In this document: piece after piece, positions 1,389 through 40,723 of the stretch
How the letters are laid out: each line of letters begins with the position of its first letter
Position numbering within the stretch: position 1 is the stretch's first letter
Source of the DNA: an uncultured Geobacter sp.
GTDB lineage: Bacteria; Desulfobacterota; Desulfuromonadia; Geobacterales; CAIOGM01
DNA: 64,000 nucleotides
Assembly: GCA_903857795.1 (NCBI GenBank)
Contig: CAIOGM010000122.1
Location: 846-64,845, forward strand
Reading direction: 5' to 3'
Notes under the pieces: generated by a model
What the model was told of the DNA's origin: nothing
What the model saw: the letters and a program-made list of their open reading frames with translations, nothing else
Databases searched by the model: none
Made by a program: the position numbers and the translations under genes

Positions 1389-1445
1389 TCTCCGCTACAC
1401 TAATAAGAGAGATTCCGTCGACAGTATACATTTAGGAGCAGACGC

Positions 1446-22066: not shown

Positions 22067-22091
22067 GGCAAATCTCCCTTAGACCTTGTTA

Positions 22092-22106: not shown

Positions 22107-22511
22107 AGTCGTATTTATGTTCTAGTATCAGCTAGTTGCAAAACAAACTGTCATGGCTCCGGACTTTTGTTTTATCACGAGTCAACCTTATGACGGAGCG
22201 GTTCACGAAACAGCGAAAGTGCGAGACGACGCTACACCTCATAGTATCCATATCGGCATAACAGGATGATAACTTTAAGATACGGAGCACCATCAAAAAT
22301 GGCGAACGGCCAGATGGAGTCGTAGGCAGGATCAAGCGGAGCGGATCCGGCGGGGCGGCTGATATTCGGTCAAAAATCGCCGGTTCCGCTGCGCTTGAAC
22401 CGGCCTACACCTTCACTATGATTTCACGTCACCCGAGCAGTTCCCTTGCCAAAACAGTCCGGATACGGTACAAGCGCATGGATAACAATCCTCTCCCGGG
22501 AAATGACGCCC

Positions 22512-24209: not shown

Positions 24210-25008
24210 TCCGCAGCGCCTTTTCCCCCTCCCCCAGCTCCACCAGCAGGGCGCAATAATAGTCGATAAAGGCGCCCAAAAACGGATAACTCCCCCTGTC
24301 ACCGCTCCGGGCAAACAGGTCAAAGGTCTTCTCAAGATAGGGGAGAGCTTCACTTTTCTGACCCGCCTCACAGAGGGTGGTCCCGAGCTTGTAGTTGGCG
24401 AAGATGCTCTCCGGCTGGGCTGTTACCCACTTCTGCATCAACTGGATGTTGCGGTGGTGCTTCCCCGTGGCGTTGAGGGAGAGATACCCGTAATGCCGGA
24501 AGTGGACATCGAGGAGTCGGGGGACCAGCTCCGGCCAGTGGGCATAGAGCGACTCGCCGATACTTTCATGCACCGGGTTGGAGAAACGGATGGCCGGGTC
24601 GTTGCGAAAGAGGCGCAGCCCCTTCACCGACTCCACCGCTCCCGAATCGAACAGGTTGTCCAGCCAGACGATGTACGCCCGGGCGTCGCGCTCCTGCAGG
24701 GCGGCGATGATCGTCTCCCCGGCTTTTTTGTCATAGAGGACTTCGTCGGTGTCCACATTCAGAATCCAGGAGAACCTCGCCCGGTCGATGCCGAAATTTT
24801 TGGCCTTGGCAAAGTCGTCCACCCAGGGAAACTCGAAGATCCTGCAGCCAAACTTTCGCGCAATCGCCACCGTCCCATCCGTCGAGCCGGTATCCACCAG
24901 CACGAACTCAGAAGCTATCACCTTGAGAGAGCGAAGCACCAGCGAAAGATACTTTTCGGAGTTCCCCGCAATCATGACGACCGAGAGTCCGTGAGGCAGA
25001 GCGTTCAT
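24184..25008 (-). CDS. GT2-family glycosyltransferase with TPR
   Basis: LVDTGSTDGT, W.DDFAKAKN, VDTDE, VHE, HYGY. Confidence 0.85.
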   Translation of the reverse strand: MNALPHGLSVVMIAGNSEKYLSLVLRSLKVIASEFVLVDTGSTDGTVAIARKFGCRIFEFPWVDDFAKAKNFGIDRARFSWILNVDTDEVLYDKKAGETIIAALQERDARAYIVWLDNLFDSGAVESVKGLRLFRNDPAIRFSNPVHESIGESLYAHWPELVPRLLDVHFRHYGYLSLNATGKHHRNIQLMQKWVTAQPESIFANYKLGTTLCEAGQKSEALPYLEKTFDLFARSGDRGSYPFLGAFIDYYCALLVELGEGEKALRIREVAREW

Positions 25009-27143
25009 GGTGCTCCTCTCCGGGAAGGTTCACTCTCATCCCAGACGGTGACGATATGCGAGGGGGGCGCCAGGGCTTGAATGACGGGGAGAGCGACGCC
25101 GTTCCAGCCGGATGCGAGAAAGAACGCCCGCGCCGCCCGGTTCCGTTCGGTCTCGGCGAAGGCGAAGGTCAGGGGGCCGAACCGTCCGCAGAGTTCGCTC
25201 ACCACCGCCTCATCCACTCCGAGACCGATGACGCGACAGCTTATGGCCATGGACTCCACCCGTTGCCCTGCTTCATCCAGGAGCACGACAGCCACCGTGC
25301 CATAGGAGCTGCCCGAGTCGGCGACCTCCGCGGAATAAACCCTCTGTTCGACGAAATAGCGAGCCATCCCGGCATCGCTCACCCTCACGCCGTTCAGGTT
25401 CCACTGGTTGGTCTTGTTGAGCAGCTGCTGGGCCCGTTCCCTCCCCGCCTCATCCTCCCCATGAACCGGGCCGATGGTGCAGCGAAGTCCCAGGTGGTCC
25501 AGGTAGCTCCCCCGTCCACTCTCCGAACTCTGCGTCCGGAATGCAACCCGCTTCCTGATCGATTCCCAACGGTTACTGTCCTCTGCGGTGATCGTCACGC
25601 TCTGGAGATAGGGGCTGCAGAGGAGTTCCCGGCGGAGATAATTAAGCTCCGCCCCCAGGGTGCGCAAGGCGGGAAAGGCCGCTATGGCCGACTCCCGTTC
25701 CAGAGGATTGTCATCGATGAAGAGCGCCTGTTCGGGCAGGATATTGAGGAGCTCCAGGATTTCCCCGATACTCTCCGGCTTGGGCCTGAAGTTGATCCGG
25801 ACCAGGGCGAAATCATCCAGGGTAAGGGGGATGGTGAGCGGAGCCACCGCATAGGAACCGAGGATCTCCCGCCACCGCTCCCGGATGAACGCCTCATCGT
25901 TCTTGCTGGCGATGGCCAGGAGAATCCCCCGCTTCCTCAGAATCAGCAACGCCTCGACAATGGCCAGAGGACGTCCCTCCCAGCTGCCGATCCTCATATC
26001 CGAAGCCAGACCGCGCCAGAGGGTATTGTCCAGATCGATGATCACCAGCTTGATCCTGGCTTCGGTGGTAAGGATGATCTGTCGGAGCAGGATTCCCCTG
26101 ATCAGTTGTTCCAGATAGAGATCGATGCCGATCTCGAAGCCCATGGTAACCGGGATGTCGGTAACGGGAAAATCGGCATCCAGCGGAGCATCATAGTCCA
26201 GCAGAAAGCCGCGATGACCGGAGAAGTTGACCAGGCCGTCGTCCACCCGGGACTTCCCTACGGCCGCCGCAACGGCGTCGGCATCGATGAAATAGCAGCC
26301 GGGCCGGGTGGCGCACCACGCCGCAGTCGCCTCATTGAGCTCCCGGACGAAACGCCTAAAGTTCGCTCTCCCGCCGCCAGCCATGAACAGCCCCAGAGGA
26401 TTGGAGGTCGGCTCCACAAAACCGATGACGAAGGTCGCAGTGCTGATCTCCCTCGGAGTGACCGCGTCCAGGTACGCCAGGAGATGACCCTGCGCCTCCT
26501 GGAAGAAGAGATCGGAGTCACCGCTGCAGTAATACAGGTCCATGAGTCTCGGGTGCATGGCCCGAAACGGCGGAATGACAACCCTGATCCGCTCCCACCC
26601 CGGTGCCGGGGGAGAGAGACTCTCCTGGGAACTGACCGGAAGCGGGGCGTTCCTGACGGTCAGCACCGTCCGGCTCTCAATGCCCAGCTCTCGCGCCGCC
26701 TCCTGGAACTTGAGTTGCATCTCCTGGCCGCTGCACCCCCCGATCAGCTCCACCTCAAGCGGCTTGAACGTCTCCTGCACCGGCTTCAAGGCCATGGGAG
26801 AGTCCATCATCCTTACGGCGTTGCAGGGGAGGTAATACTCCTCCAGCCATCTCCGATAGGCGGCTTCCAGCTCCGACCAGGTCACGACCCGCGCCCCGGA
26901 GAGCTGAAGATACGAGGGGACCGGCATGGCGCCGGCGGTAAGCAGCACGTTTATCTGTCGCTTACCGGACTCTCCGTGGAGAACAATATCCGAGATATGA
27001 AGAGGGAGAGACTCCAGGAGTATGGAGAGATAGGGGATTGTATCGACGGGGCACAAGCGGAGATGGGGGAACCGGCCGCGAAGCGCATGACCGGCCGCAT
27101 CCTGAAGAGCTGTTGCCTCGTAAAACCCGACTATGAAGTACAT
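25005..27143 (-). CDS. FkbH-like HAD-IIIC protein (glyceryl transferase/phosphatase)
   Basis: IDLDNTLWRG, ASKND, FIDDNPLER, QLLNKTNQWN, SCRV; start at ATG just after the upstream stop. Confidence 0.85.
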   Translation of the reverse strand: MYFIVGFYEATALQDAAGHALRGRFPHLRLCPVDTIPYLSILLESLPLHISDIVLHGESGKRQINVLLTAGAMPVPSYLQLSGARVVTWSELEAAYRRWLEEYYLPCNAVRMMDSPMALKPVQETFKPLEVELIGGCSGQEMQLKFQEAARELGIESRTVLTVRNAPLPVSSQESLSPPAPGWERIRVVIPPFRAMHPRLMDLYYCSGDSDLFFQEAQGHLLAYLDAVTPREISTATFVIGFVEPTSNPLGLFMAGGGRANFRRFVRELNEATAAWCATRPGCYFIDADAVAAAVGKSRVDDGLVNFSGHRGFLLDYDAPLDADFPVTDIPVTMGFEIGIDLYLEQLIRGILLRQIILTTEARIKLVIIDLDNTLWRGLASDMRIGSWEGRPLAIVEALLILRKRGILLAIASKNDEAFIRERWREILGSYAVAPLTIPLTLDDFALVRINFRPKPESIGEILELLNILPEQALFIDDNPLERESAIAAFPALRTLGAELNYLRRELLCSPYLQSVTITAEDSNRWESIRKRVAFRTQSSESGRGSYLDHLGLRCTIGPVHGEDEAGRERAQQLLNKTNQWNLNGVRVSDAGMARYFVEQRVYSAEVADSGSSYGTVAVVLLDEAGQRVESMAISCRVIGLGVDEAVVSELCGRFGPLTFAFAETERNRAARAFFLASGWNGVALPVIQALAPPSHIVTVWDESEPSRRGAP

Positions 27144-27144
27144 T

Positions 27145-28473
27145 TCAGAGCTCCGATACACCGCGCAGTACCTCGGCGATGACCCCACGCCACTCCCCCA
27201 GCCGGGCTTGACGAAACATCCGCATCTGCCCATACCACGGCCCCAACTGCTCCTGCAACAGCCACCGCCAATCCGGTGCATAGGGGAGCAGCAACCAGAA
27301 CGGTTTTCCCAGGGCGCCGGCCACGTGAGCCACCGACGTATCGACGGTCACCACCAGATCCAGCTGGTCGATCAGCGCGGCGGTGTCGGCATAGTCATGA
27401 ATCAGGGGTGAAAGATCTATCAGCTGCTCCGGCCACGGTTCCGGACGCTCCCCGCCAATCTGCAGGCTGTAATAGCCGTGGTTTCCGCCTCTCAGGAGCC
27501 GGGAGAAAATCGGCCATGGAATGGAGCGGCTGGCGTCGTTGGTATGTTTGCCGCTCCCCGCCCAGACAAGGCCGATCTTTTTATTGTGAGACTCCAGCGG
27601 CGCCGCCGGCAGCAGCGGTCGCCCCGGTGAGGTCAGAGAGAGAGCAGGGGTATGGCTAAGGCTCTCCAGCAGGCAGTATGATCCGAGGCTCATGACCGGA
27701 ATTGTGGCATCGAAGCCCATGGGCTCCTTCCCCAGTTCGACGATGCGCCGTAGGCCGGGAAGCCCCCGGAGCAACCGGAGGAGCTCCGGGTAACAGGCCA
27801 GCGTCACCTCCACCCCTCTCCCGGCCAGCTGCGGGATGAACCGGGCAAACTGGATCGTGTCGCCATACCCCTGCTCGGCGGAGACCAGCAGCCGGAACCC
27901 TTCTCTGACCGTGCCGTCCCAGCGCGGATAGGGATACTCCCGCGGCGGACAGGTGGGACGTTGAAAGCGCCATTCATACTCGGCGAACCCCTCATCCCAT
28001 CTGCCGAGCCCCAACAACAGCTGGGCATACTCGAAATGCCCCTGGGGATCGGCGGGACGCAGGCGGAGAAACTGCTCTATGGCCGTACAGGCAGCCGGAT
28101 AATCGGCCAGATCGCGCCGCGCCATGGCCAGCACCAGCCAGGTCGAGGGATTTCCCGGGTCAAGAGCGGCGGCACGGGCATACAGCACCGCAGCCCGACC
28201 GGTGTCACCGAATTTCTGCGCGGCATGACCTTGCCAGAGAGCCAGCATGGGATCAGCGGGGAAGAGCAGCACCCCCTGTTCCAGTTGCCGGAACGCCGCC
28301 TGATAATCGTGAAGCTTGAACAGCGCCAGGGCGAGGTTCTGCTGCGCCTCCAGGAGGTACGGATCCACCGCCAGCAGCTCCCGCCAGATCCGGACAGCCG
28401 GTTCGAGCCGCCCTGCGGTGGCGGCGGTGAGCGCCTCGGCTAACAAACGGGAAGAGTCCGGCGGATCAGCCAT
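27145..28473 (-). CDS. TPR plus GT-B (GT9-like) protein
   Basis: N-terminal TPRs, EYEWR, EQGYGDTIQFARF, IGLVWAG, VDTSVAHVAGALG, DWRW. Confidence 0.85.
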   Translation of the reverse strand: MADPPDSSRLLAEALTAATAGRLEPAVRIWRELLAVDPYLLEAQQNLALALFKLHDYQAAFRQLEQGVLLFPADPMLALWQGHAAQKFGDTGRAAVLYARAAALDPGNPSTWLVLAMARRDLADYPAACTAIEQFLRLRPADPQGHFEYAQLLLGLGRWDEGFAEYEWRFQRPTCPPREYPYPRWDGTVREGFRLLVSAEQGYGDTIQFARFIPQLAGRGVEVTLACYPELLRLLRGLPGLRRIVELGKEPMGFDATIPVMSLGSYCLLESLSHTPALSLTSPGRPLLPAAPLESHNKKIGLVWAGSGKHTNDASRSIPWPIFSRLLRGGNHGYYSLQIGGERPEPWPEQLIDLSPLIHDYADTAALIDQLDLVVTVDTSVAHVAGALGKPFWLLLPYAPDWRWLLQEQLGPWYGQMRMFRQARLGEWRGVIAEVLRGVSEL

Positions 28474-29227
28474 GGAGGAGCCGCCAATAGGGCGCAATCT
28501 TTGGGAAAACAGTCTGTATCATGAATTGCGGCATGAGGAACTGGGGAAAAGATTTGCTGGAATTCCCTCGGTGCAGGATATGCAGGGAGAGCCCCGTAGT
28601 ATCGGAGAGGCAGACAACCTTCCCGCTGCGGGTGGCGGCGGTGATGAACGGACCATCCTCATTCCAGGTAACGTCGGGAAATTTCACCTGATCCCATACC
28701 CGCTTTTTATAGAGGTACGAGAAGCCGTATCCCAGGTGATTGTCCGCAAAGTTCTGATTATTTTGTTCCGTCAGCAGCACCGTATCAACAGGCTGACCGG
28801 ACCAGATAAAGTGCAGCCCCGTCTTCACCATGAGATCCCAGTAGGCAAACTGGTCATAGAGGCCGCTATAGAGGAAGAACCCCGACAATTTGACAAAATC
28901 GGCCTGATGAGCGCTCATGACGGAAAGCATCTGCGAGAGATAATCCGGCGCATAATAGTCATCATCGTCAAAATGGGCGATAATTTCGCCTCGCGCCCGT
29001 GCAACCAGCACATTTCTCTTCACCCCCACCGACCGGCGCACCGGGTCGTGATGATACTGAACCCGAGGATCGGAGAGCGCGGTCATAAAGGGAGAGGGAG
29101 CGGGGCTGTCGTCATCCACCAGCCATTGGATGCTGGGCCACTCCTGGGATTGGATGCAGGAGTAGATCAGCGGGAGGAGAGACTCTCTGCCGTAGGTTGG
29201 GGTGATGATGCTTACCAGGGGTTTCAT
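28466..29227 (-). CDS. GT2-family glycosyltransferase
   Basis: VSIITPTYGR, GVKRN, HFDDDDYY, ED. Confidence 0.85.
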   Translation of the reverse strand: MKPLVSIITPTYGRESLLPLIYSCIQSQEWPSIQWLVDDDSPAPSPFMTALSDPRVQYHHDPVRRSVGVKRNVLVARARGEIIAHFDDDDYYAPDYLSQMLSVMSAHQADFVKLSGFFLYSGLYDQFAYWDLMVKTGLHFIWSGQPVDTVLLTEQNNQNFADNHLGYGFSYLYKKRVWDQVKFPDVTWNEDGPFITAATRSGKVVCLSDTTGLSLHILHRGNSSKSFPQFLMPQFMIQTVFPKIAPYWRLLHG

Positions 29228-29581
29228 CCGTGTCAACTCCGGGGTTCGGGGTTCGGGGTTCTATGTTCAAAGTTCTAACCGATTAGGGATAATCTGTTCG
29301 CAACGACCCGTAGGAGCGTCCTTTAGGCGCGAATTCTCAGCATCATTCGCGGCCTATACCCAGCCATGTCCGGCTAGATAATTGCCGAAAGGTGAAACCC
29401 TGATTTAACCCCTCACCCGGCCTTCGGCCACCCTCTCCCGTTGGGTGAGGGTATGATTTCGATCCTTCTCCTTTAGGCCCGTATTTTAGGGTCCCGGGGG
29501 AGAAGGTGCCCCATAGGGCGGATGAGGAAGGGGGGGAACGCCACGGGACCGACAACGATGGACTATACCCGATTTTAGAAA

Positions 29582-30070
29582 CGGACGCACCGCAAAAAAA
29601 TCAGCGTTATCCGGTTTGGTAATGCCTGGGGTTATAAGTCCCCCCGCCCCTTGCGGGAGGGGGTTAGGGGGCGGGGGAAGCCGCGAGGAAAGTACGTTTT
29701 CGCCATTCATAAACAGTGACATTATAAGTATTTTCAAAAAAATCCGCTCTGTACGATTAGCCTAAGCAGCCATTTGCAGAACTACAATCAACCATTTATC
29801 AGCTAATTACGCTGTTAACCCATCCCCACCCTAACCCTCCCCTTGAAAGGGAGGGGATTTATTGGCTCCTCCCCCTTCAAGGGGGAGGTTGGGAGGGGGA
29901 TGGGGCTACGGTAGTGCTGAACTGAAATCTAATCATACAGTGCAAAAAAATTTGAAGTTTTCTTGAATAGCAATGCCTGCAAGTGACTTCCCCCACCCCC
30001 CAGCCCCCTCCCGCGAGGGGAGGGGGAGCTTGATGCAAGAATCCAAGGCGCCGGACGCACCGCAAAAAAA
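29582..30070. repeat. Nested G/C-tract palindromic repeats bounded by a 19-bp direct repeat
   Basis: CGGACGCACCGCAAAAAAA at 29582 and 30052; inverted pairs 29639-29680/29987-30027 and 29819-29857/29866-29905. Confidence 0.75.
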
Positions 30071-30161: not shown

Positions 30162-31073
30162 TTACCTCAGGAGAGAGAGGGCCGCCTGGGGAGTCTGGTT
30201 CGCCTGGGACAGGATGGCGGTGCCGGCCTGAGTCAGGATGTTGTTCCGGGTCATGTTTGCCGTCTCGGAAGCCACATCGACGTCTCTGATGCGGGATTCG
30301 GCGGCGCTGGTGTTCTCGACGGCCACCGCCAGGTTGTTGATGGTGGACTGGAGCCGGTTCTGCGTGGCGCCCAGGTTGGAACGCTGGCTGGAGATACTCT
30401 GAATGGCATTATCGATGGCATTCAGTGCGCTCTGAGCGCCGCCCTGAGTACTGACCTGAACAACACCTCCGCCGGTACTGGCAAAATTGACGCCGATGGC
30501 CTTGGAATCTGCAGACGCAACATCCAGCGTAATCCGGTCCAACGCATTACCTGAAGTACTTGTGGTTGTATTGGTATCATTCCGCGGGCCGATATGGAAG
30601 ACCATCGTCCCGGCCCCCGGAGTCGTGGTCACGGAGCCGTCACCGGACATTGTTCCGTCCAGCAGTTTTTTACCGTTGAACTCGGTGGAACCGGCGATCC
30701 GGTCGATTTCACTGGTCAGCTTGTTGAATTCACTCTGGATATAGCCCCGCTCGGTGCTCCCCACGGTGCCGGTGGCGGACTGCTCGGCCAGTTCCCGCAT
30801 CCTGACGAGGATGGAACTGGTTTCATTGAGCGCCCCTTCAGCCGTCTGGATGAGGGAAACGCCGTCGTTGGCGTTACGCGTCGCCTGATTCATACTGCGA
30901 ATCTGGCCCCGCATGTTCTCCGAAATGGAGAGACCGGCGGCGTCATCGGCCGCGGTGTTGATGCGGTAGCCCGATGAGAGGCGCTGCATGGATTTCGCGA
31001 GTTGGCCCTGCGATACGCTCAAGTTTCTCTGGGCGTTGATCGAAGCCGTGTTGGTCTGAATTGACATTGCCAT
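30162..31073 (-). CDS. fliC: Flagellin (downstream copy)
   Basis: RLSSGYRINTAADDAAGL, QTAEGAL, RSNLGATQNRL, SRIRDVD, QANQTPQAALSLL. Confidence 0.97.
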   Translation of the reverse strand: MAMSIQTNTASINAQRNLSVSQGQLAKSMQRLSSGYRINTAADDAAGLSISENMRGQIRSMNQATRNANDGVSLIQTAEGALNETSSILVRMRELAEQSATGTVGSTERGYIQSEFNKLTSEIDRIAGSTEFNGKKLLDGTMSGDGSVTTTPGAGTMVFHIGPRNDTNTTTSTSGNALDRITLDVASADSKAIGVNFASTGGGVVQVSTQGGAQSALNAIDNAIQSISSQRSNLGATQNRLQSTINNLAVAVENTSAAESRIRDVDVASETANMTRNNILTQAGTAILSQANQTPQAALSLLR

Positions 31074-31136
31074 GATATTCCTCCTTGAGTGGTCGGCGAT
31101 AGCACGCGAGTTACAATGTGCGAGCGATCACCTGGT

Positions 31137-31151
31137 GGGCTTTCCATGCCC
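31137..31151 (-). promoter_or_regulatory. Putative CsrA-binding GGA hairpin in the leader of the downstream flagellin
   Basis: GGGC-ATGGAAA-GCCC on the mRNA strand. Confidence 0.5.
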
Positions 31152-31412
31152 GTGTAGGGGTATCTTTATTTAGACCCTCAACCCCCTATCGGGTCCTTCG
31201 TCACAACGTATGTACCATTTCACCTCCCTTTCTCATGACAGCCGTAGCGCCGTCGGGTAATTATTCCTTGAGATTACAGCTAATTGCACCACACTGATCC
31301 GGTAGGCAGATACAGGTACAGGGGGACTCACCGGGCCACTAGGCCATGCAAGTCCCCCTTTCGTCCCGGCGTGAAGGGTGTACGTAGCTGCGATTAAGAT
31401 TTCAAAGAGCCG

Positions 31413-32327
31413 TTACTTCAGGAGCGAAAGCGCCGCCTGGGGTGTCTGGTTGGCCTGGGACAGGATGGCGGTGCCGGCCTGGGTCAGGATATTGTTCCGG
31501 GTCATGGTGGCGGTCTCCGAAGCCACATCAACGTCTCTGATGCGGGATTCGGCGGAACTGGTGTTCTCAATGGCCACCGCCAGGTTGTTGATGGTGGACT
31601 GGAGCCGGTTCTGGGTGGCGCCCAGGTTGGAACGCTGGCTGGAGATACTCGCGATGGCGCTATCGATAGAATTCAGTGCGCTCTGAGCGCCTGCCTGAGT
31701 ACTGACCTGAACAGAAGTTGTGCTGCCGAAATTAACACCGATGGCCGTAGAACTTGCAGCCGAAACGTCCAGCGTAACCCGGTCCAACGCATTGCCGGCG
31801 GTACTGTTATTGGTATTGCCGATACTGGTATCATTTCTCGGGCCGATATGGAAGACCATCGTCCCATTTCCCGGAGTCGTAGTCACGGTGCCGTCGCCGC
31901 ACATGGTTCCGTCGAGCAGTTTCCTGCCGTTGAACTCGGTGGATCCGGCGATCCGGTCGATCTCACTGGTCAGCTTGTTGAATTCACTCTGGATGTAGCC
32001 ACGCTCGGTGCTCCCCACGGTGCCAGTGGCTGACTGCTCGGCCAGTTCCCTCATCCTGACGAGGATGGAGCTGGTTTCGTTGAGCGCCCCTTCTGCGGTC
32101 TGGATCAGGGAGACGCCGTCGTTGGCGTTGCGCGTCGCCTGGTTCATGCTCCGGATCTGTCCCCGCATATTTTCGGAGATAGCCAAGCCAGCAGAGTCAT
32201 CGGCCGCGGTGTTGATCCGGAAACCCGACGAGAGGCGCTGCATGGACTTGCTGAGAGCCAACTGCGAGGTTGAGAGGTTGCGCTGGGCGTTGAGGGACGA
32301 GACGTTGGTCTGAATTGACATGGACAT
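31413..32327 (-). CDS. fliC: Flagellin (upstream copy)
   Basis: Same conserved terminal motifs; highly similar to 30162-31073. Confidence 0.97.
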   Translation of the reverse strand: MSMSIQTNVSSLNAQRNLSTSQLALSKSMQRLSSGFRINTAADDSAGLAISENMRGQIRSMNQATRNANDGVSLIQTAEGALNETSSILVRMRELAEQSATGTVGSTERGYIQSEFNKLTSEIDRIAGSTEFNGRKLLDGTMCGDGTVTTTPGNGTMVFHIGPRNDTSIGNTNNSTAGNALDRVTLDVSAASSTAIGVNFGSTTSVQVSTQAGAQSALNSIDSAIASISSQRSNLGATQNRLQSTINNLAVAIENTSSAESRIRDVDVASETATMTRNNILTQAGTAILSQANQTPQAALSLLK

Positions 32328-32510: not shown

Positions 32511-32544
32511 GCCGATCTCTAAAAAAATCCCCGACAAATCATCT

Positions 32545-32559
32545 TGGCAAAGAGTATGC
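32545..32559 (+). promoter_or_regulatory. Putative sigma54 promoter for the corrinoid/kinase module
   Basis: TGGCAAAGAGTATGC (GG-N10-GC). Confidence 0.55.
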
Positions 32560-32639
32560 ATCAAATTTTCTATCCTCATGAACTGTCAAACCGGAGTATA
32601 GTGGGGCCGGACAGAGGTCGCCCCCTTTCAAGGAGCATC

Positions 32640-33287
32640 ATGGACACCCGGGAACCGCTGCACCAGGAGTTGGAGACGGCCCTGTTGAGCCTCAACAAGG
32701 TTGCAACCCGCCGCATATTCAAGGAGTCTGGGCTCTCCCCCATCCGCTTCGCGGAAGAGCTCTTCATGCCGGTTCTGGATCGGATCGGCGCCAAGTGGGA
32801 GCGGGGCGACTGCGCCCTGTCACAGATTTATGTGAGCGGGCGGATCTGCGAATCGCTGCTCAACGAACTCCTCCCCACCGCCCCGGCGGAGCAGAGCATG
32901 AATCCCCCCATGGCGGTGGCGACCCTCGAGGATTCCCACCTGCTGGGCAAGCGGCTCCTCTCTTCCGTACTCAGATCGAGTGGATACCATTTCCACGATT
33001 ACGGACAGCAGAATCTGGAGAATCTGGTCAGTAAGGTACAGTTCGACGGGATACGGATCCTGCTCGTCTCCACCCTCATGCTCTCCTCGGCCCTCCGGGT
33101 GAAGGAGCTGCGGCGACGGCTGGACAAACAGGGGCTCCAGGTAAAGATCGTGGTGGGGGGCGCCCCCTTCAGATTCGACCAGGCGCTCTGGCGGGAGGTC
33201 GGGGCCGACGCCACGAGCCCCACCGCCACCGGCGCTCTCGCCATCGTCCGGCGCCTGGCAGACGAGGTGCGACATGAAAACCAGTAA
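32640..33287 (+). CDS. Corrinoid (cobalamin-binding) protein, MtaC/MetH-cap type
   Basis: Helical cap with IGAKWE.G, DxHxxG motif EDSHLLGK, VSTLM, IVVGGAP; RBS AAGGAG before ATG 32640. Confidence 0.85.
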   Translation: MDTREPLHQELETALLSLNKVATRRIFKESGLSPIRFAEELFMPVLDRIGAKWERGDCALSQIYVSGRICESLLNELLPTAPAEQSMNPPMAVATLEDSHLLGKRLLSSVLRSSGYHFHDYGQQNLENLVSKVQFDGIRILLVSTLMLSSALRVKELRRRLDKQGLQVKIVVGGAPFRFDQALWREVGADATSPTATGALAIVRRLADEVRHENQ

Positions 33288-34323
33288 TTCCATGGAGAGG
33301 GTGCTCACCACCCTGAGCCATCAGGAACCGGATCGGGTCCCCTTCTTCCTCCTGGCGACTCTCCACGGCGCCCGGGAGCTGGGAGTCGGCATCAGAGAGT
33401 ACTTTTCCCGGGCAGAGCAGGTCGTCGCCGGCCAGCTGCGGCTGCGGGCCAGGTACCGCCATGACTGTCTCTCCGGTTTCTTCTTCGGCCCCCTGGAGAT
33501 CGAGGCGTGGGGGGGGGAGGTACTCTATTACGATGACGGCCCCCCAAACTCCGGGGAGCCGCCTCTCAGAGAGCTGGAGCAGATCAGCAGCCTCAAGCCC
33601 CCCCGGATCGCCGAGGCCCGCTGCCTGCACCGGAGCCTGGAAGCCATCCGGCTGCTGAAACAGCAGTCAGGGGGCGAGGTCCCGATCCTGGGGGTAGCCA
33701 TCTCCCCTTTCTCCCTGCCGGTGATGCAGCTGGGGTTTGATCGCTATTTCGACCTGATCCATGAGCGGCCGGAGCTGTTTCAACGGCTCATGGCCATCAA
33801 CGAAGAGTTCTGCGTGGAGTGGGCCAATGCCCAGCTGGACGCCGGCGCCACCGCCATCTGCTATTTCGACCCGGTGGCCTCCCCCACCATCCTCCCCCCC
33901 GAACTCTATGAGGCCACAGGCTTCCAGGTGGCGAGAAGGACCCTGGCCCGGATCAAGGGGCCCACTGCGACCCATCTGGCGTCGGGGCGCTGCCTCGGGA
34001 TCATGGAGCTCCTGGCCCGGAGCGGCACCGTCGCCATCGGGGTCAGCGCCCAGGAGAATCTGGCGGAGGTCAAGGCCGCCGCTGCCGGCCGCGTATCGCT
34101 CATCGGCAACCTGAACGGCATCGAGATGCGGCGCTGGAGCGAGGCAGAGGCGCGGGAGAAGGTCCGGGAGGCCATCACCAGGGGGGGCGCCGGCGGCGGC
34201 TTCATCCTGGCGGACAACCATGGCGAGATCCCCTGGCAGGTCTCCGATGAGCTGCTCATGACCATCTCCGACGCGGTCCTGACCTTCGGGCAGTACCCGC
34301 TCTCCCCGGGAGTTTCGGAGTGA
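33274..34323 (+). CDS. UroD/MtaA-CmuA family TIM-barrel protein (methylcobamide methyltransferase-like)
   Basis: MERVL...EPDRVP, ISPFS, AQLDAGA...DPVAS, LIGNL, GGGFIL...GEIP. Confidence 0.8.
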   Translation: MKTSNSMERVLTTLSHQEPDRVPFFLLATLHGARELGVGIREYFSRAEQVVAGQLRLRARYRHDCLSGFFFGPLEIEAWGGEVLYYDDGPPNSGEPPLRELEQISSLKPPRIAEARCLHRSLEAIRLLKQQSGGEVPILGVAISPFSLPVMQLGFDRYFDLIHERPELFQRLMAINEEFCVEWANAQLDAGATAICYFDPVASPTILPPELYEATGFQVARRTLARIKGPTATHLASGRCLGIMELLARSGTVAIGVSAQENLAEVKAAAAGRVSLIGNLNGIEMRRWSEAEAREKVREAITRGGAGGGFILADNHGEIPWQVSDELLMTISDAVLTFGQYPLSPGVSE

Positions 34324-36233
34324 AGAGGGATCGCCTCTGCATTCTGGTCTGCGAACTGTTCGCCCCCGAGATACACGGAGTGGCCGCGTCCGGCGCCTCA
34401 CCTTACGTTGATTTTGCCACCTTTGCGGGGCGTTGCGGCCGGCCGCCGCTCTCGCTTGTGGACCTTCAGGCGGCGCTCCCCGATTTCCCCGACTACGGAA
34501 GGGTGCTCCTCTTCGGCGGTTGCTGCCTCTCCCGGCTGGAGAGCGCTCCGGAACTGCTCACTATCTGCCGGTTCAGCCGGTTGGATTCCTGTTTCTGCCT
34601 GGTGGCGGACAGATCAACCGTACATCAGTACCAGCGAGGAGGGGGATATCTGGTCACCCCCGGCTGGCTGCAGTCGTGGCGACGCCATCTGGATACGCTC
34701 GGTTTTGCCGGAGATCGGGAGACGGCGATGGAATTCTTCGCCGAATCGGCCAGGTCCATAATCCTCCTGGAGACCGGCGCCACCCCTGACGCCGCAGAGC
34801 TCCTTGCCTCCTTTGCCGGGTATATAGGACTCCCTGCCATCACTATCCCGGTGGGGCTCGACCTGCTCAGGCTGCGGATTGAGCTGGCGACCAGCCAGTG
34901 GCAGGCGGACTCCTGCCGGAATTCCCATGAACTGCTCCAGCGGATCTGTGCCGACTACATCATGGCCCTGGACCTCCTGGATCTCATCGCCCAGTCCAAT
35001 GAAGAGTCGGAGATCGTCGGAAAGGTTCTGACGCTGTTTCAGACCCTCTTCGCCGCCACCGGGGTCGCCTTCGTCTCATTCAACGACGGCCTCCCGGACA
35101 AGGTGATCCTCCAGGGGTATTTCGAGGAGGGTGTTCAGGCCGAACTCCTCTACGAGGCGGCGGCCCTGAGGAGCGAATCGGCACTCCCCGACGACGATGG
35201 AGGACGGTTTCTCCTGCAGGTGAACAATCGCGGGCAGACTCTCGGCGTCATCGTGGTTGACGGCCTCGCCCTCCCCCGCTATCGGGAACAGTACCTGAGT
35301 CTGGCCTTGACCACCGCCGAACTTTCCGGCATCATCCTGAAAAATGCCCGGGTTTTCAACGAATTGAATGCGGTGACGCGGGAGCTGGCCGGTCAGCGCG
35401 ATGAACTTCACAAGGCCTACGCCGACCTGAGAGACGCCAAGGCCGTGGCGTTTCAGCAGGAGAAGCTCGCCGCCATCGGCCAGTTGGCGGCCGGCGTGGC
35501 CCACGAGATCAACAACCCCCTGGGGTTCATCGTCAGCAACCTGGGGACGCTGGGGAAATACCTCAACCGGATCATCGAGTTCATCGAGGTTCAGGCCGAT
35601 TGCCTTGCGGAAAGCGGCCTCCCCTCTCTCCGCAAGCGCGCCGGGGAGTCGGCCACCCGCCTGAAGATTGAGTTTATTCTTCGGGACTCCCCACAGCTGA
35701 TCTCGGAATCAGCCACAGGCGCCGAGCGGGTCCAGAAGATCATCCACAATCTGAAGATTTTTTCCCGGGTCGATGACTCCGCTTTCGCCTCCGTCGACCT
35801 TAACGACTGTCTGGAGAGCGCCATCAGCATCGCACAGAGCGAGTTGGCCCCGGTGGCGCAGATCAGGCGGCGCTACGGGATCATCCCGCGTCTCCGCTGT
35901 TATCCGCAGCAACTGAGCCTGCTGTTTATGAATCTTCTTTTCAACGCCGCCCATGCTCTCACCGGCAGAGGGAGCATCACGGTCACCACCTGGCTGGAGG
36001 GAGAGACGATCTGCGCGGCCATCAGTGATACCGGCTGCGGGATTCCCGAGGCGCACCTCTCCCGCATCTTCGAGCCGTTCTTCACGACCCGGGAGGTGGG
36101 AATGGGGACCGGTCTCGGGCTCTCCCTCTCCTACGACATCGTCAAACGGCACAGTGGAGAGCTTACGGTGGAGAGCAGAGTGGGAGAAGGGTCGACCTTC
36201 ACGGTACGGCTCCCCGTTGTCGGTCTCCCGTAG
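34320..36233 (+). CDS. Sensor histidine kinase with Cys-rich DUF1638-like N-terminal domain and GAF-like region
   Basis: N-terminal [21 protein letters not shown]; [39 protein letters not shown]. Confidence 0.85.
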
Positions 36234-36281
36234 CTCCTCCTGCTTCAACTCCGCAATCAGAAAGCCATTCAAAATCAGCGC

Positions 36282-36394
36282 ACCGGATGACACGGATCTT
36301 GACGGATAAATGCGGATCAATCTATTATTGGTTCAACCTCAAAGTCTGTTTTGGCTTGATCCGCCTTGATCCGTGTCGTCCGTGTCATCCGTGT
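36282..36394. repeat. Inverted pair of 9-nt-period repeat tracts
   Basis: CGGATGACACGGATCTTGACGGATAAATGCGGATC ... GATCCGCCTTGATCCGTGTCGTCCGTGTCATCCGTG. Confidence 0.75.
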
Positions 36395-36449
36395 GAAACG
36401 GTTTTTTCGAAATTATTACTCGGATTGTAACTATTCAAGAGGAGCAGAT

Positions 36450-38168
36450 ATGGGGACTGGAGAAGAAACCACGGGGACGCAGGAACAGGGGCACGAAGAG
36501 CTGCTCCTGAAGCTCCGCATCCGGCTCATGGAGTATGCCGTCGGCCACACCCTGGACGAACTGCTGCAGTACACCCTGGATGAGGTCTGCGCCTTCACCA
36601 ACAGCCCCGTCGGCTTCTATCATTTTGTCGATCCGGATCAGGAGTCCCTCACGCTCCAGGCATGGTCCACGAGAACCCTCAGGGAGTTTTGCACTGCGGA
36701 GGAGCATAGCCGCCACTATCCCGTCAAGGAGGCCGGTGTCTGGTGCGACTGCCTCCATGCGCGAAAACCGGTGATCCATAACGATGTCGCCGCGCTCCCC
36801 CATCGCAAGGGGCTCCCCACGGGGCACGCCGTAATCATCAGGGAACTGGTGGCGCCGGTGCTGCGCAACGAACTGCCGGTGGCGCTCTTGGGGGTCGGCA
36901 ACAAGCCTGAACCGTACACCGACGACGACGTGCGGGAAGTCTCCTTCCTGGCGGATGTCGCCTGGACCATTACCGAACAGAAGCGGACCCAGGTGGCCCT
37001 GCAGGAAAGCGAAGCGCTGTTACGACTCTTCCAGGAGCACAGCCCGGTCTACACCTACATCAAGGATGAACAGCTCAAGATCGTGGACGCCAGCCGAAAC
37101 TTTGAGCAGATGCTCGGCAGACCGCTGGATCAGATCATCGGCAGAAAAACGGAAGAGCTCTTCCCGCCGGAGTTCGCCCAAAAGATCATTCAAGACGATC
37201 GCGCCGTGCTGGCCGGCGGCGCCGCGGCCGAGTTCGAGGAGGAGTTCGGCGGGAGGAGCTACCGAAGCATCAAGTTCCCCCTCAAACGGGGCGACCGGAA
37301 CTATCTGGCCGGCCATACCATGGATATCACCGAATACAGAACGGCAGCGCGGGAGCTGAGCATCCTGCGGCAGCAGATGCTCCGGCAGGACAAGATGGCC
37401 TCCATCGGCCTCCTTGCCTCGGGAATCGCCCATGAGATCAACAACCCCGTGGGATTCATCTCCAGCAACCTCATGACCCTCGGGAAATATTTTGACCGGC
37501 TGGAATCCTATATGGAAACGCTGGAGGAGGAGCTCGGGGAAGAGGGGGACCACCAGGAGAAGCTGGAAAGAATCACCGCTCGCAAGGAAGCTCTCAAGAT
37601 CACTCGCATCCGGCAAGACCTGCCGCAACTGATCGGCGAATCCTCGGAGGGAACCGAGCGGGTAAAAATGATCGTCCAAGAGCTCAAGCTCTTTTCCCGC
37701 AGTGATGAAAACAGGGCGCTGGAATCGACCGACCTGAACCTCTGCATCAGGAGCGCCGTCAACATCGTGACCAACGAAATCAAATATGTGGCCGACCTGA
37801 AGCTCTTCCTGGGAGATATCCCCCGGATCTGCTGCAATCCGCAGCAGATCAGCCAGGTGGTGATGAACCTTCTCGTGAACGCGGCGCAGGCGATGATCGG
37901 TCACGGGGAGATCACCGTCCGGAGCTGGAGCGACGCCGACAGGGTCTACATCAGCGTCCGGGATAGCGGGCGCGGCATCCCGGAACGGGAACTCCCCCGG
38001 ATATTCGAACCGCTCTTCACCACCAAGGAGGCCGGCAGGGGGACCGGACTGGGGCTCTCCATCTCCCTCGATATCGTCAGGAAACATGGGGGGACCATCC
38101 AGGTGGAGAGCAGTGAGGGGGAGGGGTCGCTCTTCACGATTCAGCTCCCCATGAGGAGTGCGGCATGA
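36450..38168 (+). CDS. GAF-PAS sensor histidine kinase
   Basis: GAF (AGVWCDC, IHND, GVGNK), PAS (IIGRK.EELFP), AHEINNPV, NLLVNAAQA, GTGLGL; RBS GAGGAG. Confidence 0.9.
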   Translation: MGTGEETTGTQEQGHEELLLKLRIRLMEYAVGHTLDELLQYTLDEVCAFTNSPVGFYHFVDPDQESLTLQAWSTRTLREFCTAEEHSRHYPVKEAGVWCDCLHARKPVIHNDVAALPHRKGLPTGHAVIIRELVAPVLRNELPVALLGVGNKPEPYTDDDVREVSFLADVAWTITEQKRTQVALQESEALLRLFQEHSPVYTYIKDEQLKIVDASRNFEQMLGRPLDQIIGRKTEELFPPEFAQKIIQDDRAVLAGGAAAEFEEEFGGRSYRSIKFPLKRGDRNYLAGHTMDITEYRTAARELSILRQQMLRQDKMASIGLLASGIAHEINNPVGFISSNLMTLGKYFDRLESYMETLEEELGEEGDHQEKLERITARKEALKITRIRQDLPQLIGESSEGTERVKMIVQELKLFSRSDENRALESTDLNLCIRSAVNIVTNEIKYVADLKLFLGDIPRICCNPQQISQVVMNLLVNAAQAMIGHGEITVRSWSDADRVYISVRDSGRGIPERELPRIFEPLFTTKEAGRGTGLGLSISLDIVRKHGGTIQVESSEGEGSLFTIQLPMRSAA

Positions 38169-39487
38169 CAATGAAGCAGAAGGCGCCCGATGCGGTTAAG
38201 GTGCTCTGTGTGGATGATGAGGAGTACATCCTCAACTCCCTCAAGCGTCTGTTCATCGATGAGGAGTTTGAGGTCATCACCGCCCTCTCCGGGCAGGCGG
38301 GACTTGCCCTGCTGGCCGACACCAACAATGTGGGGGTGATCATCTCCGACCAGCGGATGCCGGGGATGCTCGGCGCGGAGTTTCTCCACGCCTGCCGTAC
38401 CGTGGCCCCCGATGCCGCCAGGATCCTGCTGACCGGCTATTCCGACCTCACCTCCACCATCGACGCCATCAATAACGGCGGGTTGTCACGCTATCTGGGC
38501 AAACCATGGAACGATGAAGAGCTGCTCATGGTGGTGCGGGACGCCCTGCAACAGTACACGCTGATCATCGAGAACCGCCGTCTGAACGGCGTGGTACAGC
38601 AGCAGAACGAGGAGTTGCAGGAGTGGAACAAGAATCTCAAAGGGCGGGTTCTGGCGCAGACCATCACCCTGCGCCAGAAAAACGAAGAGCTCTACCTCAC
38701 CCTGCAGCGGATCAAGCAGAGCTATGAATCCATGATTGTGGCGCTGGCGGGGCTGGTCAAGCTGCGCGAACAGAGCCTCTTTCAGCATGCCTGCAACGTG
38801 GCGGATCTCTCCCGCAGCGTCGCCATAAAAGCCGGCATCACCCCCTATGGTGTGGAGAACATCAGGGTAGCCGCGCTCCTGCACGATCTGGGGAAACTCG
38901 GCATTCCCGAACGGATCCTCCATCTGACCCCTGAACAGCTGAACCCTGAGGAGCTGCGCGTCTACCAGACCCACGCCATCCGGGGGCAGATGGCGCTCCA
39001 TATGATCGAAGAGTTGCGGCCGGCCGGAATTCTCATCCGCCACCACCACGAGCATTTCGACGGCAGCGGTTTCCCCGACCGGCTTGGCGGCAGCGATATC
39101 CCCCTGGGGGCGCGGATCATCGCCTTCGCCGATTTCATCGACAACACGTTTACAGGACAGACAGCCACCACCCTGGAGCTCGCCCTGGATCAGGCCGAGG
39201 AGCTCGGCGGCAGCCGGCTCGACCCCCAACTCCAGAGACTCTTCGAGCGGGTCGCCGCCAACCTGTACGGTCTTGAGACCGACCGCTTCACCGGAACCGT
39301 TACCGAACGGGAGATCTCACCCTTCGAGCTGCAGAGCGGCATGACCCTGAGCAGACACATCTATACCGGCTCGGGGGTTCTGCTCCTGAGACAGGGAACG
39401 GTTCTGGATGATTTCAAACGGGAGGCGATCCAGCGCTTTTACACGTTCGACCCCACAAACCAGGGGGTCTTCGTCATGCTGAGGTAG
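38165..39487 (+). CDS. Response regulator with HD-GYP-like domain
   Basis: VDDE, SDQRMP, LTG, KPW; LHDLGK, HHHEHFDGSGFP, ARIIAFAD. Confidence 0.9.
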   Translation: MTMKQKAPDAVKVLCVDDEEYILNSLKRLFIDEEFEVITALSGQAGLALLADTNNVGVIISDQRMPGMLGAEFLHACRTVAPDAARILLTGYSDLTSTIDAINNGGLSRYLGKPWNDEELLMVVRDALQQYTLIIENRRLNGVVQQQNEELQEWNKNLKGRVLAQTITLRQKNEELYLTLQRIKQSYESMIVALAGLVKLREQSLFQHACNVADLSRSVAIKAGITPYGVENIRVAALLHDLGKLGIPERILHLTPEQLNPEELRVYQTHAIRGQMALHMIEELRPAGILIRHHHEHFDGSGFPDRLGGSDIPLGARIIAFADFIDNTFTGQTATTLELALDQAEELGGSRLDPQLQRLFERVAANLYGLETDRFTGTVTEREISPFELQSGMTLSRHIYTGSGVLLLRQGTVLDDFKREAIQRFYTFDPTNQGVFVMLR

Positions 39488-39508
39488 GGAGAGAGGCGAT
39501 TTATCCTA

Positions 39509-39680
39509 AACCGGACAAGCCGGAACCAAATAGGAAAGTCTTAAGCTGGATAAGCGAGAACCAAATAGGACGCGGATAAACGCTGATGAACGCGGATCTA
39601 AAACATAAAAACCTAAAAAAATAGCAGCAAGCGAGTGGCCTCAGAGTGTATAAAGAGGGTTGATCCGCGTCCATCCGCGT
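39509..39680. repeat. Tandem imperfect repeat plus inverted 9-nt-period tracts
   Basis: GAACCAAATAGGA twice (units 39509-39535 and 39543-39570); ACGCGGATAAACGCTGATGAACGCGGATC ... GATCCGCGTCCATCCGCGT. Confidence 0.65.
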
Positions 39681-39741
39681 ACAACGGTCTTGAATTTTGA
39701 AGTTTGCTCAGTTTTTGTAAAGAGTGAAGTTGTAAGTGACT

Positions 39742-39902
39742 AATCTGCGGCAAACAGAATCTCCCTCCCTTTCAAGCCTGCCCTGAGCTCTGTCGAAGGG
39801 GGGAGGGCTGGGGTGGGGATGGGGTAAGAACAGTCGCTCGACAACCCCATCCCCCTCCTGACCTCCCCCTTGAAGGGGGAGGAACGATTAATGCCGCAGA
39901 TT
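39742..39902. repeat. Palindromic element with 11-bp terminal inverted repeat and G/C-tract arms
   Basis: AATCTGCGGCA / TGCCGCAGATT ends; arms match the 29819-29905 family. Confidence 0.75.
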
Positions 39903-39953
39903 GATAGCATTAAGGTGATTCGCACCAATAAAGATTCCATGCTAACCAACAGT

Positions 39954-40478
39954 TCAGGCGCAGGCGAGGGTGAGCCCTACTTCGGACAGGAGCGAAGAAA
40001 ACATACTGACCGGAACCGGACGGCTCACCGTCCGGGCGCTCTTCTCGGCGACCGGAGTGGCCTCGGGAAAGAGGGGGTGCCGGGTCGCCGCCTGGACCGC
40101 CTCCAGCACGACCTGTTTCGCGATCATCCTCGTGGGGTTGATGACGATGGGTCCCTGCAGATTCATCGTGATCTGGCGGGGGTCACGAGCCATGGTTACC
40201 ACCGAGAGAAGGACGATCTCGTCATCAGCCGACAGTTGCAGCCGGTCGTATTCGTCCTGGGTCAGCTTTACCCGATACTCCGGGACAAACAGGGTCGGAT
40301 CGACCACCACGAAGGCCAGTTCAGGATTCTCCACGGCCTGGAGCCAGCAGAAGGGGCCCTTTTCCGGGTTGAGAAACATGAACCGGTTCTCCCTGAATCC
40401 GACCATTCCGTCAGGCATCTGGATGACCTTCTCCTCATCGATTTCCAATTCGCCGAAACGTGCCGTCTTGATTTTCAC
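39954..40478 (-). CDS. fliW: Flagellar assembly factor FliW
   Basis: TARFG, GMVGF, WLQAV..PELAFVVVDP, TMNLQGPIVIN. Confidence 0.95.
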   Translation of the reverse strand: MKIKTARFGELEIDEEKVIQMPDGMVGFRENRFMFLNPEKGPFCWLQAVENPELAFVVVDPTLFVPEYRVKLTQDEYDRLQLSADDEIVLLSVVTMARDPRQITMNLQGPIVINPTRMIAKQVVLEAVQAATRHPLFPEATPVAEKSARTVSRPVPVSMFSSLLSEVGLTLACA

Positions 40479-40723
40479 AGTCGTGACTCCTTCTTCTGGT
40501 CGGTGAACAGATTCACCGCGGTTTGAAAATCGGCCAGATCCCAGGTTGCAGCCAACCGGTTCTGCTCCTGTACCTTCAGGTAAATTTCTTCCCGGTAGAT
40601 CCTGAAGTCCGCCGGCGCATCGATCCCGATCCGGATCGAATTCCCCTTTACCTCCACAACCCTGATCTTAATCTGGTCCCCGATGGCGATGGATTCGCCA
40701 ACCTTCCTGGTCAATACCAACAT
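40475..40723 (-). CDS. csrA: Carbon storage regulator CsrA
   Basis: MLVLTRKVGESIAIGD...RIGIDAP...IYREEI. Confidence 0.97.
   Translation of the reverse strand: MLVLTRKVGESIAIGDQIKIRVVEVKGNSIRIGIDAPADFRIYREEIYLKVQEQNRLAATWDLADFQTAVNLFTDQKKESRL

Follow-up and report, generated by a model that had tools for sequence, protein, structure and literature searches.

A corrinoid protein, a zinc-less URO-D protein and a DUF1638 kinase probably form an undescribed B12-based sensory input module in many bacterial phyla

Known mechanisms of B12 sensing are riboswitches or light-triggered repressors. We analyzed a 64,000-nucleotide stretch of DNA from an uncultured Geobacter species (contig CAIOGM010000122.1, positions 846 to 64,845; hereafter the window), which carries among its flagellar genes a five-gene locus for a corrinoid protein (Cor), a URO-D-superfamily protein, a histidine kinase with an N-terminal DUF1638 domain, a second histidine kinase and a REC-HD-GYP regulator. 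By analogy, the closest functional precedent is the NosP-NosK-NosR pathway. According to the accessible part of the source on that system, the heme accessory sensor NosP controls NosK, a soluble, sensor-less kinase of the H-E-I-N-N type, and NosK phosphorylates the REC-HD-GYP protein NosR, whose motifs are degenerate in B. pseudomallei (PMC12570481). For DUF1638, the available sections of Price et al. report a Phaeobacter gene that is co-fit with a split methionine synthase (MetH) and adjoins the piece of it that binds B12; they also describe co-distribution of DUF1638 with a RamA-like protein, and in those sections no specific function is given (PMC5764234). A role in reactivation is an idea repeated in the accessible portion of a later article (PMC12478193), and the same portions of both papers indicate that DUF1638 is genetically required together with the adjacent corrinoid protein (PMC5764234; PMC12478193).

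The locus of the window would join an undescribed, widespread input module to a NosK/NosR-like branch of cyclic di-GMP (c-di-GMP) signaling. We consider it fairly likely that its first three genes, here called the trio, encode a three-part sensory input module, and this receptor reading is the best supported one; across many bacterial phyla the trio is probably an undescribed B12-based cellular sensor. In the mechanism that we propose, the zinc-less URO-D protein would act on, or dock to, the cofactor of Cor, and DUF1638 would read the state of Cor, either as methyl-Co(III), Co(I) or Co(II) or as loaded versus empty. A GAF-like domain devoted to this step would then relay the signal to a soluble histidine kinase resembling NosK. 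In this genus the module stands together with a GAF-PAS kinase paralogous to the first and with a REC-HD-GYP regulator of the NosR family, and two inputs probably converge on one c-di-GMP-lowering regulator. The binding of Cor to DUF1638, the stimulus, the service of both kinases to the regulator and motility as the target are points that we infer. A more specific version, in which a protein-bound cobamide is itself the chemical receptor, is tentative and, in our judgment, somewhat doubtful: here the zinc-less URO-D protein would methylate or demethylate Cor, using a single conserved methyl compound of the cell or its environment, a cysteine-metal site of DUF1638 would read and perhaps reset the cobalt state and so set kinase or diguanylate cyclase activity, and B12 methyl-group or redox chemistry would thereby directly control c-di-GMP and, in the genome of the window, flagellar behavior.

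The receptor reading is carried by the recurrence of the trio, whose composition is conserved, whose outputs vary and which has no catabolic partners nearby. The N-terminal 230 residues of the first kinase, used as query, retrieved 24 proteins (350-1115 aa), of which 15 contain HATPase_c, 6 contain GGDEF and 3 contain neither according to precomputed Pfam assignments. A twelve-sequence alignment of this N-terminal region was then employed to scan one genome per species, which yielded 74 confirmed loci. Judged by record titles, these belong to Geobacter, Geomonas, Desulfuromonadales, several Desulfobacterota groups, Myxococcales, Burkholderiaceae, Alphaproteobacteria, Bacteroidetes, Nitrospirae, Nitrospinota, Chloroflexi, Armatimonadota, Verrucomicrobiota, Acidobacteriota/Holophagaceae, Hydrogenedentes, Spirochaetes/Leptospirales, Synergistaceae, Syntrophomonadaceae, other Firmicutes and one cyanobacterial bin. 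The order Cor, URO-D, DUF1638 protein on one strand is present in 63 of the 74 loci, with gaps mostly below 40 nt. Five of the remaining eleven are contig-end cases: three have URO-D and DUF1638 with the contig ending at the expected position of Cor, and two are cut at the DUF1638 gene itself. A Spirochaetes bin (L072:906-2462) has URO-D (19-340) and DUF1638 (339-515) in one frame, which is either a natural fusion or an assembly frameshift.

What follows DUF1638 is far less constant. Among the 75 DUF1638 proteins of the 74 loci and the window, HATPase_c is present in 30, HisKA in 27, GGDEF in 25 and REC in 10, and the various PAS types each occur in 5 to 15, so that DUF1638 is found fused to a kinase, a hybrid kinase or a GGDEF domain. 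When 1.84 billion cluster representatives (clusters defined at 50% identity) were searched with a profile, E <= 0.001 was reached by 1524 proteins and E <= 1e-30 by 821. Of the best 150 representatives, 121 are at least 450 aa long, 137 at least 300 aa and 13 shorter than 300 aa; the DUF1638 match starts within the first 20 residues, and is thus N-terminal, in 146 of them. From 146 new representatives we took every second one, and these 73 carry HATPase_c in 47 cases, GGDEF in 6 and REC in 11. The Pfam match to DUF1638 reaches E <= 0.001 in all 75 locus proteins and in all 73 representatives.

Neighboring genes were compared by clustering 678 non-overlapping open reading frames of at least 110 aa (E <= 1e-15, 60% coverage). 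Apart from the trio, no family, catabolic methyltransferases and transporters included, was found in more than 5 of the 74 loci, and a RACo/RamA-type activase, searched for with the genome's own copy, is adjacent in one. Sensors usually show this very pattern, a single input ahead of many outputs and no genes of a pathway. The shuffled outputs and the absence of catabolic genes nearby fit a sensory input module rather than a food pathway. This outcome favors the original prediction insofar as it had placed the corrinoid/URO-D pair in a receptor rather than in a catabolic route.

The locus and its immediate surroundings in the window comprise the following features.

32640-33287, plus strand: corrinoid protein Cor, 215 aa from the ATG at 32640, with Pfam B12-binding_2 and B12-binding
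33274-34323, plus strand: URO-D-superfamily protein free of zinc ligands, 349 aa, with Pfam URO-D
34320-36233, plus strand: soluble DUF1638-GAF-like histidine kinase, 637 aa, with Pfam DUF1638, HisKA and HATPase_c
36234-36449, no strand: spacer between the kinases, containing a dispersed repeat; sigma-70-like match at 36299-36328
36366-38168, plus strand: second soluble kinase, GAF-PAS-HisKA-HATPase, with Pfam GAF_2, PAS_4, HisKA and HATPase_c
38165-39487, plus strand: REC-HD-GYP regulator, 440 aa, with Pfam Response_reg and HD_5/HD
39488-39953, no strand: intergenic region between the regulator and fliW, mostly dispersed GC-rich palindromic repeats
30162-32327, minus strand: left flank, tandem flagellin genes at 30162-31073 and 31413-32327, with Pfam Flagellin_N and Flagellin_C
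39954-40723, minus strand: right flank, fliW at 39954-40478 and csrA at 40475-40723, with Pfam FliW and CsrA

Both reading frames and Pfam assignments agree with the earlier description of five co-oriented genes between flagellin and fliW, on the strand opposite to the flagellar flanks, and the overlaps given for them are exact (14 nt at 33274-33287; 4 nt, GTGA, at 34320-34323; 4 nt, ATGA, at 38165-38168). The start of the corrinoid gene had been put at 32545. The longest open reading frame there opens with TTG at 32544; the ATG at 32640, with AAGGAG 6 nt upstream, is likelier. The second kinase probably starts at an ATG near 36450 and not at 36366. This start leaves a spacer of about 216 nt, so translational coupling is limited to genes 1-3 and to genes 4-5.

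The most conserved member of the trio is the URO-D protein, with a median pairwise identity of 56% over 49 loci; over the same loci Cor reaches 44% and DUF1638 31%. It matches PF01208 with 172.4 bits (cut-off 23.9; E 1.7e-50) over model positions 2-343 of 346 and lies under every NCBIfam family cut-off. Where MtaA (4ay7) reads H-I-C, the cassette protein reads H-L-A-S, followed later by N-H-G-E-I-P. Homologues from other loci in the alignment have H-L-A-S (S-S-A-S in one) and N-H-G-E-I-P or H-H-G-E-I-P, and five paralogues from the same genome have H-x-C-G and G-C-x-L/F-P. In 61 sequences, not one cysteine reaches 95% conservation. From the MtaA structure, we take the H-x-C and the later C of MtaA to be its thiol-activating zinc ligands. 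Since both zinc-ligand cysteines are missing, the cassette protein is not an MtaA-type enzyme. An MtaA/CmuA identity was rejected at the level of family models as well (TIGR01463, 92.2 versus 235.4 bits; MtaA_Meth NF040654, 91.1 versus 400). Of the earlier description as a corrinoid protein with an MtaA/CmuA-type partner, the corrinoid pair thus holds, and the MtaA/CmuA assignment falls on the lack of zinc cysteines and on scores far under the cut-offs. HemE was likewise considered and rejected (TIGR01464, 49.5 versus 302.95 bits), and the WLMRQAGR of the genome's own HemE, which lies on contig C99, is absent from the cassette protein in the alignment. The degree of URO-D conservation would argue for one conserved activity, and not for a decayed enzyme or for many nutrient specificities.

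Cor contains B12-binding_2 (E 3.9e-9) and B12-binding (E 1.9e-13) and no other Pfam domain. Its DxHxxG motif is intact, as had been noted before, and reads D-S-H-L-L-G. Residues D98, H100 and G103 of this motif, S144 and L146 of SxL, and G173-G174 of GG do not vary in any of the 49 homologues aligned. Cor thus has the features of two-domain cobalamin-binding proteins (PF02607 with PF02310 and the base-off/His-on motifs), and cofactor binding is predicted. It falls under the cut-off of every named corrinoid-protein model, MtaC, MtbC and MtgC included (TIGR02370, 67.7 versus 215.3 bits), and also of the CarH model NF052513 (38.3 bits; cut-off 400); a MerR-type DNA-binding domain is not present.

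In the first kinase, DUF1638 (PF07796; 43.6 bits, cut-off 27) occupies residues ~1-200 and is followed by a helical linker, a GAF-like region (~225-345), a domain for dimerization and histidine phosphotransfer (DHp) with H-E-I-N-N, and the ATPase domain. An AlphaFold2 model of residues 1-375 (mean predicted local distance difference test score, pLDDT, 89.9) displays an alpha/beta DUF1638 domain, a long helix, a GAF fold and the DHp helix, and Foldseek matches of the ~225-345 region are GAF domains. Four cysteines of DUF1638 are largely kept in the 49 aligned sequences (C11 in 49, C39 in 48, C69 in 39 and C91 in 48) and lie in the first lobe, each at the C-terminal end of one of four consecutive beta-strands. 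We compared eleven further DUF1638 proteins of the same phylum, seven of them stand-alone at ~210 aa; C11, E17, C69, C91, P114, W116 and W120 are kept in 9 of these 11, with His at position 39. The cysteine positions suggest a family-wide metal or cofactor site. DUF1638 modeled alone (pLDDT 92.2) gave only one match at E <= 0.001 in a fold search. The DUF1638 profile had no match at E <= 1 among Protein Data Bank sequences, and a search of the ESM Atlas with DUF1638 returned DUF1638 clusters only. For the pair of Cor and DUF1638, ESMFold2 with 49-row alignments gave a complex score of 0.45 (runs 0.45, 0.41 and 0.45), compared to 0.11 for the best control, with partner pLDDT of at least 86 and at least 66% contact agreement between runs. 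The mark for such scores is reached by 58 of 80 solved complexes and by 2 of 110 mismatched pairs; since scores of 0.60 or less are more often wrong than right absent prior likelihood, we did not count this result as evidence.

The second kinase shares 49% identity with the first over 274 aa of DHp and ATPase domains, and the H-box AHEINNP is common to both. The regulator passes the 'NosR family' model NF053512 (440.8 bits, cut-off 400; positions 1-422 of 422), and its HD-GYP motifs LLHDLGK and HHEHFDGSGFP are intact and of the c-di-GMP phosphodiesterase type. A search of the entire genome (100% complete by markers) with PF08495 brought up no FIST/NosP protein. All three congeners possess the complete five-gene block, with 53-56% identity in the DUF1638 domain and 50-78% over the four proteins compared. 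Their kinase frames abut or overlap, unlike the spaced pair of the window. The flanks of the block in congeners are not flagellar: an aminotransferase gene lies 3' of the regulator in two, and upstream there are agmatine-deiminase-like and CN-hydrolase genes in one of these and a ParB-like gene in the other. The block thus moves as a unit, and its flagellar address is peculiar to the genome of the window. An empty insertion site between fliC and fliW could not be demonstrated in congeners G401 and G402, whose contigs end close by: that of G401 stops 48 nt past fliW, and in G402 a glycosyltransferase gene stands beside fliW and the contig ends 1.3 kb on. The eight flagellar or flanking proteins of the window have no match near any of the 74 loci. 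The link to motility that had been drawn from the flagellar position therefore lost its footing, as flagellar genes adjoin the cassette in none of the 74 loci and in none of the three congeners.

The spacer and the right junction of the locus are both built of repeats. The spacer sequence (36234-36449) has copies on six other contigs of the same genome by BLAST, and its promoter-like site at 36299-36328 matches 10 of 12 sigma-70-like positions. Region 39488-39953, which includes a GC-rich palindromic unit at ~39800-39880, gave 68 BLAST pieces on ~40 other contigs of the genome and one more on the window's own contig, at ~29860-29905. Contig depth for the right-junction repeat is 17-175 in two bins, as against ~1-10 in most others, with many loose ends. 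We checked both junctions by aligning the assembled contigs of four pond-metagenome runs to the window. Contigs from two runs, each of a different study, span the left junction between flagellin and the corrinoid gene, and one of these runs may be the source sample; at the right junction (39.6-39.9 kb, in the multi-copy repeat) there was no bridging contig among the pieces listed, with 347 more beyond these. One metagenome contig joins 31962 back to 30709 and so links both tandem flagellin genes. This suggests that in the population the paralogues recombine or vary in copy number. Beyond csrA, the minus strand encodes FlgL, FlgK, FlgN, a FlgJ-like rod-binding protein, FlgI, FlgH, FlgA and a rod protein, and FliD (19952-22078) lies further upstream of the flagellins. 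The interval between fliD and the flagellins (22422-29236), with glycosyltransferase, TPR and HAD-like genes, resembles a flagellin glycosylation island.

The trio was also approached from its second member, with the URO-D protein as query over 401 genomes of the phylum. Identities were bimodal: five genomes, including that of the window, have a match at 52-100%, and all remaining matches are at 33% or below. The orthologue adjoins DUF1638 in three of the five genomes, and two of the four foreign orthologues stand directly upstream of a DUF1638 match. No recognizable methylotrophic pathway was found around any foreign orthologue. The association of this URO-D protein with DUF1638 is accordingly strong yet not exclusive. 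RACo was found in three of five cassette-bearing genomes.

Several observations weigh against a dedicated sensor. The 74 loci were found via DUF1638 and so cannot reveal Cor/URO-D pairs that lack it. Two Hydrogenedentes loci have no URO-D, with Cor followed directly by DUF1638, and in three Clostridium loci and one cyanobacterial locus the retrieved stretch contains a DUF1638 kinase and neither Cor nor URO-D. Conversely, the genome G049 (L105:3959-7462) has a zinc-less URO-D protein of 59% identity in the order Cor, URO-D, multihaem-cytochrome-like protein (175 aa), Cor, where DUF1638 and any other signaling gene are absent, and one orphan URO-D orthologue stands beside an ABC exporter. RACo was not found in two congeners (98% and 99% complete), so that a Co(I) cycle would run there without an obvious reductant. 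At locus L025 the trio includes a stand-alone DUF1638 next to RACo, which makes a metabolic ancestry likely. Finally, the best folds for DUF1638 are of the LacI/periplasmic-binding type at template modeling scores of 0.22-0.43 and a root-mean-square deviation of ~10 A, which is no functional lead.

One rival view is that the locus is an ordinary catabolic or repair methyl-transfer operon beside its regulators, in which Cor and URO-D would be enzymes, DUF1638 would serve in reactivation and the kinase fusion would be incidental. L025 and the URO-D orthologues without DUF1638 would fit such an operon, as would the stand-alone DUF1638 that acts with a metabolic corrinoid enzyme in Phaeobacter, and elsewhere the host genome encodes RACo along with four MtaA paralogues of the zinc type. 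However, 73 of the 74 loci are without a recurring substrate or acceptor methyltransferase, activase or transporter, fusion of DUF1638 to varied outputs is the rule in the clade (137 of the best 150 representatives reach 300 aa), and the URO-D protein lacks a thiol-activating zinc site; we consider this view improbable. A redox or oxygen sensor, to which we assign a low though not negligible probability, would make more of the cysteines: a Cys4 site, Cys3-His in stand-alone forms, would bind a metal or an iron-sulfur cluster and, along with the oxidation-prone Co(I)/Co(II) couple, report the cytoplasmic redox state or oxygen, with URO-D merely keeping Cor cycling. Four cysteines at the ends of successive beta-strands are typical of a cofactor site, the constellation is conserved family-wide, and the record titles name mostly anaerobes (Geobacter/Geomonas, Syntrophomonadaceae, Desulfobacteraceae, Holophagaceae, Anaeromyxobacter and Clostridium). 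RACo, moreover, does not always accompany the cassette, and the signal could therefore be oxidation to Co(II) itself. This proposal leaves the strongest conservation, that of URO-D, unexplained; no cluster-binding family matches DUF1638, and C69 is the least constant of the four cysteines.

The kinase might instead tell empty from loaded Cor and tune behavior to the supply of B12, an availability sensor that we hold to be rather unlikely. The invariant cobalamin-binding motifs of Cor and the lack of catabolic partners nearby are compatible with it. Rfam at gathering threshold found no cobalamin riboswitch in the whole window (0 matches), so the usual B12 control at the RNA level is absent at the locus. 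A loading sensor, however, needs neither a highly conserved enzyme-like URO-D protein nor a cysteine-rich third component, and the genome clearly uses cobamides, with 19 B12-binding-domain stretches (18 above cut-off) that include two clusters of zinc-type corrinoid methyltransferase genes. A light sensor like CarH/AerR, in which an alkyl-cobalamin on Cor would be photolysed and URO-D would re-methylate it, is very improbable. Cor does have the two-domain layout of CarH and the weak match to its model given above, kinase and GGDEF outputs are typical of photoreceptors, and one locus comes from the phototroph Candidatus Viridilinea and one from the cyanobacterial bin. Most carriers, however, are sediment anaerobes, and the sequence W-x9-E-H, which we take to be the CarH signature, is not present after the conserved W53 of the Cor consensus. 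The accessible text of a cobalamin-photoreceptor mining paper is without the terms histidine kinase and uroporphyrinogen, with methyltransferase and corrinoid in its references only.

Other corrinoid genes of the genome lie apart from the cassette. A B12-binding radical-SAM protein at the start of the window (1407-3293) is unrelated to it. Contig C80 (10940-16008; L090:4941-10009) carries an unusual cluster in which a second corrinoid protein is paired with a zinc-type URO-D protein; next come a nitrogenase-component-1-like oxidoreductase and then a PALP-CBS enzyme. On contig C156 (14090-25148), a RACo/RamA-type activase with one in-frame TGA lies amid four zinc-type MtaA-like paralogues. RACo matches in genomes G403 and G226 contain one TGA each, and because a single TGA recurs in the RACo of three genomes, selenocysteine is possible.

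No publication describing the cassette was found in a search of titles and abstract openings, for which subscription journals lie largely outside coverage, and the words cobalamin, B12 and corrinoid are absent from a 2022 census of c-di-GMP sensory inputs (PMC8846402). If the receptor reading is true, a cobamide protein and an enzyme-like partner that feed kinases and c-di-GMP cyclases would be a new bacterial input chemistry. In the more specific version, with the cobamide itself as chemical receptor, it would be a new class of signal input, to be found across bacterial phyla in hundreds of protein clusters. DUF1638, so far linked to B12-dependent methionine synthesis, would at the same time receive its first molecular role. 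Among environmentally important anaerobes (metal reducers, syntrophs and sulfate reducers) the module is common; cultured Geomonas species have it too, which makes the idea directly testable.

Each described system shares part of this architecture. The methyl-transfer systems of methanogens and acetogens (MtaC/MtaA, MtbC/MtbA, MtsB/MtsA and the O-demethylases) have the same two-domain DxHxxG corrinoid protein adjoining a URO-D-superfamily protein with a triosephosphate isomerase (TIM) barrel. In contrast to them, the cassette URO-D protein is without zinc cysteines, both proteins score far under the cut-offs of the named families, a substrate-specific methyltransferase is missing, an activase is the exception, and the third gene encodes a signaling protein. 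CarH and AerR likewise unite a helical bundle with a Rossmann-type B12-binding domain and use it for signaling rather than catalysis, but the cassette has no DNA-binding domain, its URO-D and DUF1638 context is obligatory, and its carriers are mostly dark-living anaerobes. Stand-alone DUF1638 proteins (such as PGA1_c13340 in Phaeobacter inhibens and SPO2162 in Ruegeria pomeroyi) belong to the same Pfam family, have a corrinoid-protein neighbor and share with the kinase-fused form the positions C, E, C, C, P, W and W; they differ by their His, rather than Cys, at position 39. The stand-alone protein has ~200 aa, serves a split methionine synthase and co-occurs with a RamA-like protein, whereas here the domain is the N-terminal input of a kinase and RACo is not a constant companion. 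Nearest are NosP-NosK-NosR and H-NOX/HnoK, which likewise combine soluble H-E-I-N-N kinases and a NosR-family regulator with a separate cofactor-binding protein of the operon as the proposed controller of the kinase. The locus of the window departs from the NosP system in having a cobamide protein in place of a heme protein, FIST/NosP being absent from the genome, in adding URO-D and an in-line DUF1638-GAF input, and in keeping the HD and GYP-like motifs of its regulator intact.

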